A program made the position numbers and the translations under genes. From Giardia intestinalis (taxonomy: Eukaryota): a DNA stretch of 64,000 nucleotides. How positions within the stretch are numbered: the stretch's first letter is position 1; the number at the start of each line of letters is the position of its first letter. Below are positions 36,103-47,711 of this stretch, piece after piece. The stretch is taken from the NCBI GenBank assembly GCA_000002435.2, contig CM018790.1, one strand, 5' to 3'. The notes under the pieces were generated by a model. It did no database searches and was not told the origin of the DNA. It worked only from the letters and a program-made list of their open reading frames with translations.

Positions 36103-39100
36103 TGTGGACCGAGGCCTGCGCTCCTACACTACAGTGCAGCGGGCGGACGAGGCAGAGCCTGAATGGTATCGGAATTCCGGGGCAAGGGCTGAGCCGCGAC
36201 TGAGAGAGCAGCCTGCAGAGGGTGGAGCATAGCTCTCTGCTAACTCGAGGCGGCACAACCTGGCAATAGGACGGCTAATCCAGCCGTATTGACGTCTGAT
36301 AGACGCACCGAATACGCACTTCATGACCTCCGAATATCGTATGATGTGTGCTGGACAAGGGCCTCCCGGTGCACTTCGAGGACAGGACTGTTTAGCTAAA
36401 GCTAGAAGAGCGGTTGAGTCGTTCCCATCGGCGGCGGATGCTGCCCTGTGGACGCATATTTAAGGCTGCATCCCTTCGACTGAGCAGACAGCCGCTGGGT
36501 TACGTGCGAGCGGCCCAGGGTCTCGCCTGCCGCCTGTCCGGGCCAGTCAGCAGCTAGACTCGACATGCAGATGGAAGCCATGATAACGGACGCCGTCACG
36601 GAGGTCCGCCGTTTACTACTAGAACGGACGTGTCCGTGGCGGCCACCGTCTCCTAGAACAGCGCCCCCCCGCACAGGGCCGGCTATGTCGCGCCAGCTTG
36701 CTCGATAAGGGGCATGGGGGTCCCTTACGACGCCCTTCGGCATCTGCCGTGTCATAGGTACCCATGGCCACGAGCAGCTCAAGGGACGCAGCTATGTGGG
36801 CAGGGTAGCGTATTCATGGAGGGGCAGCTGCTTCACCTGTGCATGGCGGCGCCGGCCAGCACGTCTAGCTGCCCCACTGGCGACCACTCCTTCCCTGTGC
36901 TTGCCACAATGGGAGAGCACGTGCGCCCGTAGACCGGCAGATGCCGTGCTGGTCCTCTCGAGCAGTAGGCGCATCCTTGCGTGACATTCAGCGTGGACCA
37001 GATACCATGACCTGGGCCATCGCTACTGGCAAAGCAAGTGCTGATTGCAGCAGGGACGCCCGCCGCCCTCCAAGATAGACCAGCAACTTGCGTGTGAGGC
37101 TAGCGATGGGGCCTGCGCACCAGCTGCTATGAGCCCAGCCTTCCGGGCATCTAGATCACAGCACACTCGTCAAAGATGCACACTCATTTGCATACTCGCT
37201 GCTAGCGTTGGACAACTGCGAGGTGTCTGTCTCCGGCCGCGCTTGCCTTAGTGCTGGTCCCTGGTGATACGCCTCAGCCGAGGAGGCTATCCGTACGCGG
37301 CAGTTCCCGGAGAGAAGGCAGGGGTGACCGGCGGGCCAGGGAGATAGGACTAGCACTAGCGAGTCCAGCCATCGGCCCGGGTTGCACAAAGGACGCCTGT
37401 AGTGCCTCCCCGGCTTCTGAGCATGGAAGGGCTGTGGGGTCTGCAGATGAGACGGACGCTGTCTTTTGATTTTATGTGTTTGTAGCAGCATAGTATTTAT
37501 CGGGGTCTGCTCTGTCTGAAACCGAGAACATTCGCTTTCTTTCCTTATACAGGCTGGGATCGATTGTAGAGGTGTGCTGTGCAAACCGGTGGCAGTCAGC
37601 GTATCTACTATCCAAACGGATACTGCCTGCGTCCTCTTGTGGCAGACCACCACCAGGGCTCCAATCTGCACATCTGTTCTGGCATCTGTCGGCCAATCAT
37701 CACCTCCTGTCGAAGGATTGCTATACGTCACATATCTTGAGTCGTTCATCGACCAGGTGGTGCCATAAGCTCTTGTCTCCTACTTGTCCACCCGATGCTT
37801 ACTCTGAGCGCCGTCAATTCACTCACGTCTGCACTACTCATCTGGGTGCCCCCTACTCTTCAAGAGCACATGCCCGCAACCGATGCTCCGTATTACGAGA
37901 GGAGCCAGCCGGGCCACTGCGCTGTGCATAGCTCTCATGGGCGTATTGTTATGCGCGCCCAGCCTTTCCACCTGTAAGCTGTCACGCGGTCACATGTGCG
38001 CCAGCGCCGCCGAGCTTTCGTGGTCTCGAGGGGCCCCTGATGCATGGAGCGCTTGCGCAAAGTCCTTCCACCACTGACCCAAGCCGACCCCTCGCAAGAT
38101 CCTCAGCGGAGTTGCATCCGAGATGTGTGCTTGCATTGCTGTCCAGGTGCATGTGCCGGCCCTGGTGCTTCTCACAAGCTTGCGAGCATCAATCTGGCCT
38201 CTACCGAACCGTATCAGAAATCAACGTCAAGACGTGATCCCCTCAGTCAGGCTCTGCAGGCTCCCAGAGCTACGCACCAAAGGGCCGTTCTTCTTTGGTT
38301 GTGCAGTGTGGGGAGATCCATCGAGCTACCACACCCTTTCTGTGTGGCGTGGTTTACGACGGGGGACGGGATCCCTGTGCTCATTGTCTATCTGCCCAGG
38401 GCCAGCCACAGCCCGGGTTGACAATGACAAGCGAACATCGCCCGGCTCCTTGTCAGCAGGTGGGAACTTCCGCCACCCCAGTACCCACAGCAACGGGTGC
38501 CGATCACTGGCAGAAGGACAAGACACCCAGGCTCCCGTTCCTTCCACTGATGGTAGCCCACTATGAAGAGCCCTTTGCCGCCTGCACCAACAACCTCAGG
38601 CACTGTGGGTCCAAGTACTTCCATAGTGGACAGCGGTAGCACTATGATGATCTGGGGTGACAGGAGTCCTAGTTCACTGGCTCAGGAGACAGCACGCTTT
38701 GGGTAGTGCTTCCATCTTGTCCAGATCTGGGAGGGCTGGCTGCCTTCTGAGCCCACCTGGCACCTTGTCAGGTGATGGAGTGTCTTAAAGTATTCATTAC
38801 AAAAGATCAGAAATAGCGCCATGCATTCCCAATAGATCAGAGCGTCTCACGAGCTACTCTATGCTGATTCACACCTTTCATGGACCCTAGCGACCACTGT
38901 AACCTTCTTTCGGGATCTCGCAAGGGACTGTCCTTGAGTGCGATTCCCCCACGACAGCCGGAAGTCGCAGACATAATCCAAAGGGATGAGAGTACTACAG
39001 AGGCTGAGAGGAGAGTGCCGATGCACAGGGGTCCGCAGAGACCCGACTCGTACAGGGAAGGCGTGGATGCTGGCTCTCCAGGGATGTAGAGACACCAGGA

Positions 39101-40170
39101 AAGGAGCCGGCAGTGGGGCTTAGGCGCAGCAAAGGCACCCGATTCGTTCTCTGATTGGCCGCGAGGCAGCAGGCACATGGGGCGGCATCACCGCTTGTTT
39201 TTGGATTTTCTGTTTCCCTGCGCGTTGTGCAGGGGTCCGTAGTGGTTTGAGTATCACAGGCTACACATAGTAGATGCGTTTACTACCTAAGTCATATCTA
39301 AATCTATGCCTTTCCGCGGCAGAGGAACCACCAGCAGAGGAAGCCGACGAGGCCCCCGACGATGATGACAGCGGCCACGGCGATGCCTGCAATGGCGCCG
39401 GTAGAAAGGCCACTCTTGTTCGTGCTTCCGCCGGCACTGTCACCGTTCATGAGGTAGCAGAGGACGGAGCCTTGATTATTAGATGGAGGAGCGCAGCTCA
39501 TGCAGCCAGTAACTCCCTTGACACTTCCACTGTTGCTGTCACACGAAGTGCATGGTCCAGCTGCTGATCCGACCATATAGTACCCAGCTGCGCATGACGT
39601 ACACTTATCAGAGCTATCTGCAGTCGAGCATGTCTTGCAGGTCGAATGACACGAGGGGCATGCTCCATTATTGGGCTGAAGACCATTGGCACATGTTTCG
39701 CACTCACCCTTGCTATCAGCTAATGTGCATATCTGTTTGCCTGGCTGCTTGGTAGTTTCATAGCAGCCGCCTTCCTTGAGGAAGTAGTTAGCGGCGCATT
39801 TGGTACATGCTCCATTATTCATTTCAGTACAGAAAGCTACTCGTGCGTTACTTGTTGTACAGACCCCGTTCAGAGGAGCCTGATTATCCACTGAGCACTG
39901 GGAGCAGTAGTCTGTCCCGCCGATCCTTGCCCCACAGACCTTACATCCGTTCTTGTCCGCCGTACACGCATCCCCGCAGGTGCCCCCTTGCATAGGATCA
40001 CTACTTTTGTATATTAATGCCTTGCCAGCAGGACAAGCACTACACTGATTGTTGGCTGGCCCAACGCACTCAGCGCACTCAGGGCTGCATGCCTTACACT
40101 TCCTGTCAGTATCTCCATAGTATCCGCTGATGGCCGTGCAGTCGGATACGCACTGATTTGTTGGAGTGAG
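36103..40170. repeat. Left arm of a ~4.07-kb near-perfect inverted duplication (partner 43644-47711), covering the VSP 3' coding end, its poly(A) signal and ~3.2 kb of GC-rich ORF-poor DNA.
   Basis: Every ORF in this arm has an identical-sequence mirror ORF in the right arm with coordinate sum 83814 (e.g. 38837-39178(-) = 44636-44977(+), 37156-37749(-) = 46065-46658(+)). The outer junction was read directly (left ...catcctGTGGACC vs right GGTCCACacttc). The inner junction is at ggagtgag|gtagttcc. Confidence 0.9.
39278..39284 (-). terminator. Poly(A) signal AGTAAAC downstream of the left VSP copy (mirror of 44530-44536).
   Basis: Mirror of the right-arm signal, lying within the inverted duplication. 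Confidence 0.5.
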
Positions 40171-47500: not shown

Positions 47501-47711
47501 ATTCGGTGCGTCTATCAGACGTCAATACGGCTGGATTAGCCGTCCTATTGCCAGGTTGTGCCGCCTCGAGTTAGCAGAGAGCTATGCTCCACCCTCTGCA
47601 GGCTGCTCTCTCAGTCGCGGCTCAGCCCTTGCCCCGGAATTCCGATACCATTCAGGCTCTGCCTCGTCCGCCCGCTGCACTGTAGTGTAGGAGCGCAGGC
47701 CTCGGTCCACA
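43644..47711. repeat. Right arm of the ~4.07-kb inverted duplication (partner 36103-40170).
   Basis: See left arm. Coordinate x pairs with 83814 - x. Confidence 0.9.
44530..44536 (+). terminator. Giardia polyadenylation signal AGTAAAC 20 nt downstream of the VSP stop codon.
   Basis: tag atttagatatgacttaggt AGTAAAC gcat. The consensus AGTRAAY close to the stop is typical of Giardia mRNAs (established knowledge). Confidence 0.6.

Follow-up and report, generated by a model that had tools for sequence, protein, structure and literature searches.

Identical inverted pairs of genes for variant-specific surface proteins (VSPs) are well described in Giardia intestinalis WB, with vsp1267 as the prototype; 14 pairs were reported at first (Adam et al. 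2010, PMC2996952), then 19 (Xu et al. 2020, PMC7000408) and 20 (Rodriguez-Walker et al. 2022 preprint). Members of the known pairs are identical throughout the open reading frame (ORF) and over only 139–729 bp of flank, with 2.2–6.3 kb between the ORFs (PMC2996952, PMC7000408), and according to the preprint of Rodriguez-Walker et al. 2022 there is no duplicated VSP with repeats. Inverted VSP pairs have been called a ‘cryptic observation’ (Adam et al. 2010, PMC2996952), and they are documented together with recombination of the VSP 3′ region (Adam et al. 2010, PMC2996952; Xu et al. 2020, PMC7000408). Repeat-expanded and single-unit VSP paralogues are also on record, as vspA6 and vspA6-S1 (Adam et al. 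2010, PMC2996952). Our study examined a 64,000-nucleotide stretch of the WB clone C6 genome (contig CM018790.1 of assembly GCA_000002435.2, part of the 1,539,535-bp chromosome of the 2020 assembly; hereafter the window), in which two head-to-head VSP copies are embedded in a palindrome at positions 36103–47711. The human Y chromosome carries large ampliconic palindromes, of 9 kb to 1.4 Mb, that are maintained by arm-to-arm gene conversion, and our analysis suggests that a comparable process probably acts on this far smaller element.

An inverted-repeat search of the whole window returned one inverted repeat only, 36103–40173 and 43641–47711, with 3,467 nt between its halves. Base-by-base mirror comparison of these halves found two mismatches, at 39510 (T versus a mirror C) and at 40171, so that arms of 4,068 nt (36103–40170 and 43644–47711) differ by one base and are 99.98 % identical. 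A 4-kb inverted repeat with one mismatch excludes a chance origin. Mirror identity falls to ~20–30 %, the random level, immediately beyond both the outer ends (36102/47712) and the inner ends (40174/43640), and the two copies accordingly show the inverted orientation, the location on one chromosome and the abrupt flank divergence of inverted VSP pairs. GC content is 55–62 % in the arms and core versus ~46 % in the flanks. Each arm contains the last 288–289 codons of a VSP, with a transmembrane helix and the CRGKA terminus, followed by the AGTAAAC signal, and extends 3,201 nt beyond the stop codon, whereas the 5′ halves of the two VSP copies are at most 47 % identical. The original prediction, made from the letters of the window alone, had described near-identical arms, co-linear around position 41907, that differ in one codon (GVTGCMSC versus GVAGCMSC) and carry 289 VSP codons and ~3.2 kb of downstream DNA. 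All of this was reproduced, with a computed symmetry centre of 41907.0 and the codon difference, ACT/GCT, at 39510/44304, and the self-comparison proposed as a check yielded the long reverse-complement match.

The palindrome was compared with sequence of a second lineage, DH, an assemblage A2 isolate (GCA_000498715.1), WB belonging to assemblage A1. The contig index was searched without the WB reference, which placed the chromosome-3 ABC locus and the other WB VSP loci outside the DNA comparison; exact-protein look-ups in the same index gave no match for the right VSP, a 197-aa arm ORF, the WB VSP P0045 or the WB ABC model P0135. One DH contig (L015) is anchored in the unique left flank and crosses 36103 into the arm, and another (L020) is anchored in the unique right flank and crosses 47711 into the arm. 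The outer junctions therefore lie in DH at the WB positions on both sides, and these contigs show that the inverted duplication is older than the A1/A2 split. The original prediction had offered a very recent duplication as one explanation of the arm identity. Under a rival reading of this kind, fold-back or template-switch replication in WB would have copied 4 kb of the right locus de novo into the neighbouring VSP, which would account for the near-zero arm divergence and for an abrupt inner end with a mutated patch and a 1-nt deletion, as from error-prone break-induced synthesis. However, homology to DH is present on the left as well as the right, the outer ends coincide in position, and the DH left arm can be aligned to the right arm along the whole recovered length. 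Since the arms thus existed before the A1/A2 split, a de novo duplication in WB is largely refuted and we consider it quite improbable; the strong divergence of the DH left arm indicates that the duplication is old and that only the identity is recent.

The pattern of identity within the arms differs between the two lineages. Over the outer 790 bp (the equivalents of 36103–36890), DH-left and DH-right are 62 % identical, and the WB arm is matched at 90 % by DH-right versus 61 % by DH-left. Further inward (36891–37340), DH-left and DH-right are 99.3–100 % identical to each other and both are ~93 % identical to WB; the WB arms are 90–94 % identical to the DH-right arm. L015 and L020 stop about one 454 read length into this DH identity zone, and L021, an A2-like metagenome contig of independent origin that carries the sequence of DH-right, ends ~70 bp into it, as is expected of contigs that run into a collapsed repeat. 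The contigs show that DH has an identity tract of its own, with an outer end that differs from that of WB. An arm-to-arm identity higher than the between-lineage identity, in WB (1 difference in 4,068 nt versus 90–94 % between WB and DH, with shared outer boundaries) as in DH, is the signature of recurrent arm-to-arm conversion. We consider it probable, on this evidence, that the locus is an old palindrome that has undergone recurrent, lineage-specific arm-to-arm gene conversion. Ongoing gene conversion, the other explanation given in the original prediction, was thus the right kind of explanation.

A further DH contig, L014 (4.7 kb), is colinear with WB 41790–37114. It contains, in order, the start of the DH right VSP, the spacer, a 546-aa left VSP (P0029) and 2.2 kb of downstream DNA; its identity to WB is 95–99 % in the 5′ half of the left gene, 50–87 % in the 3′ half and ~90 % downstream. 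The 3′ half of P0029 has 66 % amino acid identity to the arm-encoded 3′ half. This pattern of identity along L014 suggests that the WB left copy formerly had its own 3′ half, later replaced by arm sequence. Three-way alignment of WB-left, WB-right and L014 located a heavily mutated patch (Table 1) directly upstream of the identity boundary in WB-left. Upstream of this patch WB and DH are 95–99 % identical in the left gene, and near it two Cys codons have been turned into Tyr. The 1-nt deletion in the patch puts the left copy out of frame with its arm-encoded 3′ half. Consequently the left copy, 40892–39304 on the minus strand, is not an uninterrupted ORF, as its 5′ ORF ends at 40014 and the part that encodes CRGKA is read in a different frame. 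The N-terminus from the ATG at 40892, MFITGDPTGFF, has a hydropathy of 0.72 and is not signal-peptide-like, and the 5′ ORF scores 23.1 against PF03302, below the Pfam cut-off of 31.4. P0029, the DH counterpart, is uninterrupted over its 546 aa. As judged from these features the left copy fits the definition of a pseudo-VSP given by Xu et al. 2020 (PMC7000408). The prediction of a head-to-head VSP gene pair within a palindrome hence stood as to arrangement, but the pair consists of one intact VSP and a frameshifted copy that lacks a signal peptide and a protein accession in the 2020 annotation.

In the history that we favour, a VSP gene was duplicated long ago in inverted, head-to-head orientation, together with at least 3.2 kb of its 3′ flank. 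The two copies would then have diverged, one amplifying a 225-bp unit and the other losing its signal peptide, while intrachromosomal arm-to-arm gene conversion would repeatedly have re-homogenised the arms, with tract ends that differ by lineage. The latest tract in WB, the recency of which is suggested by the single difference in 4,068 nt, would run from the old outer boundary (36103/47711) 4.07 kb inward and end within the ORF at a conserved ...YLTPTNQC... motif. It would most probably have copied the right arm onto the left, replacing the 3′ half of the left gene and its downstream DNA; our confidence in this right-to-left direction is moderate and lower than in conversion itself. Conversion, combined with the 1-nt deletion in the patch at the tract end, would have produced a chimeric frameshifted pseudogene beside one functional VSP. 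The usefulness of the locus lies in an identity tract that is only partial and whose ends can therefore be seen. The comparison of WB with DH points to an old duplication that was re-homogenised independently in each lineage, and would support concerted evolution by gene conversion as the reason why VSP pairs look ‘recently duplicated’. It also suggests that conversion can build a chimeric VSP with a new 5′/3′ combination, in this case a dead gene.

Several observations weigh against this history, in particular against its direction. The identity between WB and DH drops from 97–100 % to 66–82 % from ~35700, ~400 bp outside the left arm, and arm-to-arm conversion in WB does not explain the divergence at 35700–36102, so that a third locus may also have contributed sequence to DH or to WB, and the direction is insecure. 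Over its distal 180–250 bp, L014 matches the ends of L015 and L020 at only 82 %; it may therefore represent a haplotype that escaped conversion, or a paralogous second copy, and not physically continue L015. The 3′ half of the DH right VSP was not recovered among the DH contigs, the candidate that was fetched (L024) being another locus. No outgroup orthologue of the 5′ half of the left gene was found in the protein collection, in which only DH was close and the next match was at 56 %; conversion is therefore not polarised. The evidence for conversion also comes from the contigs of two lineages. The segment 35700–36102 is unique flank without a counterpart on the right side, and the possibilities for its low identity are ectopic conversion from a third locus, an old polymorphism or mutagenic repair near the palindrome. 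Two DH VSP matches, P0049 (L022) and P0048 (L024), were considered as DH right-arm copies and rejected, as their downstream DNA is unlike the arms.

The same observations bear on a different reading, in which the ancestral condition, complete identity of the arms, has been maintained and the left side of DH (~35700–36890 and the 3′ half in L014) was overwritten by ectopic conversion from other VSP loci, the WB left arm not being a recent recipient. This would fit a divergent zone that reaches 400 bp outside the arm. It would also fit the long identical stretches that P0029 has in common with DH VSPs at other loci (P0048 and P0055), and the presence in WB of a VSP on a different, 4.0-Mb chromosome (P0045, 410 aa) that is 91 % identical to the arm-encoded 3′ half. 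Several further VSPs, including P0047, are 70–79 % identical to that half. The shared stretches of P0029 and the similarity of P0045 indicate that ectopic conversion among VSP 3′ halves also occurs, and the coding part of the arm belongs to a family of 3′ halves among which sequence could be exchanged ectopically. However, overwriting in DH would require several independent replacements, the DH-left outer segment had no match among the loci fetched, and arm-to-arm conversion would still be needed to keep the WB arms identical. We regard this reading as unlikely.

The coordinates of the palindrome and of its two VSP copies are given in Table 1. Across the inner boundary of the arms the two copies part, and the core halves are, judging by the 47 % amino acid identity between the last repeat-like unit of the left copy and the unit of the right gene, old paralogues. 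The spacer between the start codons is presumed to be a divergent promoter region.

Table 1. Positions within the 64-kb window of the palindrome, its single arm-to-arm difference and the features of both VSP copies
Feature	Position	Strand	Description
Left arm	36103..40170		4,068 nt; minus-strand VSP 3′ 288–289 codons, poly(A) signal, 3.2 kb of GC-rich (58 %) non-coding DNA
Right arm	43644..47711		4,068 nt; intact VSP 3′ end and 3.2 kb of downstream DNA; probable donor copy
Core	40171..43643		3,473 nt, unique, asymmetric: left pseudogene 5′ part 719 nt, spacer 318 nt, right VSP 5′ part 2,430 nt (mostly tandem repeats)
Divergent spacer	40893..41210		318 nt between the two start codons; 46 % GC; colinear in DH contig L014
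Sole arm-to-arm difference	39510 (mirror 44304)		ACT (Thr) left versus GCT (Ala) right; GVTGCMSC versus GVAGCMSC
AGTAAAC polyadenylation signal	44530..44536	+	20 nt after the stop; mirror copy 39278–39284, minus strand
Intact VSP, 1,099 aa	41211..44510	+	KAE8302486.1 / XP_001703907.2; signal peptide, TAATGTT, CRGKA, PF03302
Tandem array	41256..43548	+	10.2 copies of a 225-bp (75-aa) unit; nine copies 100 % identical
Left VSP pseudogene, 5′ ORF	40014..40892	-	292 aa, old model XP_001704632.1; leaves the VSP frame after the junction
Left pseudogene, arm-encoded 3′ part	39304..40188	-	Frame differs from that of the 5′ ORF; includes the 229-aa ATG ORF 39993–39304
Mutated patch, inner junction of left copy	40174..40217	-	44-nt stretch that, against DH, has ~14 substitutions and a 1-nt deletion; source of the frameshift

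The right VSP begins with the signal peptide MLLGLLLFCAVARA (mean hydropathy 1.82), and its initiator TAATGTT lies at 41209–41215 in the context GCTAATGTTG. The protein matches PF03302 with E = 5.4e-88 and 296 bits (cut-off 31.4), contains 13 % Cys and 34 CXXC motifs, and ends in a transmembrane helix and ...FLCRGKA before the stop, 20 nt past which AGTAAAC follows. The VSP domain, signal peptide, transmembrane helix with CRGKA, PyAATGTT initiator and AGTRAAY signal that characterize Giardia VSPs are all present, and gene 41211–44510 is confidently predicted to be one. The original prediction gave the layout of the core correctly, as two VSP 5′ halves and a spacer, but missed the 225-bp array inside the right VSP, which takes up some two thirds of the core. 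In DH the repeat units reach only ~78 % identity to those of WB, although the signal peptide is the same, and the Sanger-era model of the right VSP has one 75-aa unit fewer (1,024 versus 1,099 aa). Together with the homogeneity of the WB array, these differences are indicative of an array that evolves in concert and changes in copy number. RNA-seq and other reads from the last 867 nt of this VSP will multi-map.

The palindrome lies between GL50803_00102071 (970 aa, KAE8302485.1) and GL50803_008348 (198 aa, KAE8302487.1), and the only protein accession between these neighbours in the 2020 annotation is the 1,099-aa VSP. The minus-strand 292-aa ORF was a ‘VSP’ in the old annotation (XP_001704632.1) and has no protein entry now. 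In the supplementary table of Adam et al. 2010 (PMC2996952), two consecutive entries are vsp165 (HH_TR225, chromosome 2, TAATGTT, 1,024 aa) and vsp166 (HH, GL50803_112048, 229 aa, no initiator). The length of vsp165 equals that of the right VSP minus one 75-aa unit. The first ATG-initiated ORF of the left arm (39993–39304, minus strand) has 229 aa, the size of vsp166, and is identical to the last 229 residues of the right VSP save for the single T/A residue. The palindrome partners therefore fit vsp165 and vsp166 in size, repeat period, chromosome, position and initiator, a match that is not one of sequence identity. These two form one of five non-identical head-to-head pairs, and in four of the five the members fall in different clades, including vsp165 (clade II) and vsp166 (clade III) (Adam et al. 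2010, PMC2996952). Our data correct this record, in that vsp166 / GL50803_112048 is an arm copy of the vsp165 3′ end and not an independent clade III gene. No description of a 4-kb repeat shared by vsp165 and vsp166 was found in the Giardia VSP literature compared here. The reference thus already contains the palindrome, and published lists catalogue it loosely; it is informative as to mechanism but would not surprise a Giardia specialist.

These older records also bear on whether the palindrome is an artefact, either of a mirrored or collapsed long-read assembly or as a chimera of two loci; assembly collapse was among the outcomes that the original prediction had allowed for. Palindromes and identical VSP pairs are known to trouble assembly (Adam et al. 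2010, PMC2996952), WB-type short-read contigs end at 34693, and odd contigs link the right flank to an intact ABC gene. However, Sanger-era models hold the left inner junction (XP_001704632.1, exact over 292 aa) and list vsp165/vsp166 head-to-head on chromosome 2, the DH contigs independently back both outer junctions and the core layout, and the arms, differing by one single-nucleotide polymorphism, are not literally one consensus. With the PacBio reference, the Sanger-era gene models and the DH contigs in agreement on the layout, we consider an artefact extremely improbable.

For the 3.2-kb flank in the arms, no match was found in a Pfam search of seven arm ORFs, no credible match by tblastn with VSP, ABC and neighbour proteins, no Rfam match at E ≤ 0.1 and no tRNA by ARAGORN. 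At the DNA level the flank matched neither the remainder of the window nor any other locus that was fetched. No reverse-transcriptase relic was detected at the palindrome, although the literature reports such relics near duplicated VSP pairs. The arm had been predicted to extend 3 kb past the gene and to end in an ABC-gene remnant. It does reach more than 3 kb past the gene, but ABC similarity begins at 47944 (DNA) or ~47898 (protein), 187–232 bp beyond the arm end at 47711; a remnant at the arm end is ruled out by these coordinates, and the ORF over the arm boundary is a spurious upstream extension.

The intact ABC gene, XP_001710177 (933 aa), is on another WB chromosome (1,973,847 bp), beside GL50803_0017314. 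DH has the palindrome-side and the intact ABC loci separately, and the homology they share is confined to window 47944–49028. These 1,085 bp comprise the last third of the ABC gene, a spacer and 125 bp from the start of the 198-aa gene GL50803_008348; 47944–48898 is 3 % diverged from its paralogue at the intact ABC locus and 48899–49028 is identical. The segment looks like a staggered overlap left by an old chromosomal rearrangement or translocation breakpoint beside the palindrome, which agrees with the loss of synteny reported at VSP loci (Xu et al. 2020, PMC7000408). The truncated ABC copy is present in DH as well, along with a second ABC fragment of 271 aa on another contig (P0136). WB-identical Logan short-read contigs (L001–L010, compared with window 47944–59500) run from the intact ABC gene and the genes next to it on chromosome 3 directly into GL50803_008348 and on through 10.6 kb of the right flank. 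The intact-ABC variants at 48858, 48865 and 48874 were present in 10/10 contigs displayed, which stand for 23 with the 198-aa gene. Either these contigs are de Bruijn-graph chimeras formed across the paralogous segment, or some lines really are arranged differently here. They were rejected as an ‘empty site’, being WB-identical, with the intact ABC gene on another WB chromosome. On the left flank, WB-type short-read contigs end at 34693 (L011, L012) or 34635 (L013) and A2-type contigs (L017–L019) at 34741; the stops at 34693 and 34741 lie 128–176 bp past the stop codon of GL50803_00102071 and ~1.4 kb short of the arm. The window contains no repeat that would account for the stops near 34693; the segment 34694–36102 may be repeated elsewhere in the genome.

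A regulatory role for the arms was also considered, namely as a programmed flip-flop inversion switch or a source of hairpin RNA controlling VSP expression. The geometry alone invites this reading, and bidirectional and antisense transcription is common in Giardia. However, inversion of the core alters neither the gene junction sequences nor the linkage of promoter and gene, no recombinase or RNA motif was found in the arm flank (Pfam on seven arm ORFs; Rfam), and VSP switching is described as epigenetic (Adam et al. 2010, PMC2996952). Such a programme therefore has hardly any likelihood in our estimation. Flip-flop inversion and palindrome-driven amplification, both raised in the original prediction, are purely speculative. 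Looser variants, in which the palindrome supplies double-stranded RNA to the RNA interference pathway proposed to silence VSPs, or in which arm recombination flips the core in clonal populations, are very improbable too, if by a shade less so. If the former held, read-through transcription of both arms would give RNA that folds back into a hairpin as long as 4 kb, including 867 nt of VSP 3′ end shared at 60–90 % with many VSPs. As for the latter, both isomers of the core would have identical junction sequences, and short contigs therefore cannot tell them apart.

Inverted VSP pairs are, as the original prediction stated, known in Giardia, and the palindrome resembles the identical pairs in that two VSP-derived copies, inverted on a single chromosome, are almost 100 % identical up to points of abrupt divergence and lie in GC-rich surroundings with few genes. 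Unlike those pairs, it shares only the last 288–289 codons instead of the whole ORF, its identity continues 3,201 nt past the stop and its start codons are 318 nt apart; furthermore, one partner bears repeats and the other is a pseudogene, and no reverse-transcriptase relic was detected. With 10 copies of a 75-aa unit in the right gene and one related unit (47 % amino acid identity) in the left copy, the locus is reminiscent of vspA6 and vspA6-S1, although here the paralogues are partners in one palindrome and have an identical 3′ half. Its likeness to human Y palindromes lies in the kilobase-scale inverted arms around a unique spacer, the arm-to-arm identity (99.98 %) far above that between lineages (about 90–94 % for WB versus DH) and the conserved outer boundaries. 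Unlike those palindromes, the Giardia arms measure 4 kb, the host is a tetraploid binucleate protist, and conversion, as inferred from two lineages only, inactivates one gene copy rather than preserving it. Taken together, the palindrome is best filed as a variant of the identical inverted VSP pairs that behaves like a small conversion-maintained palindrome.

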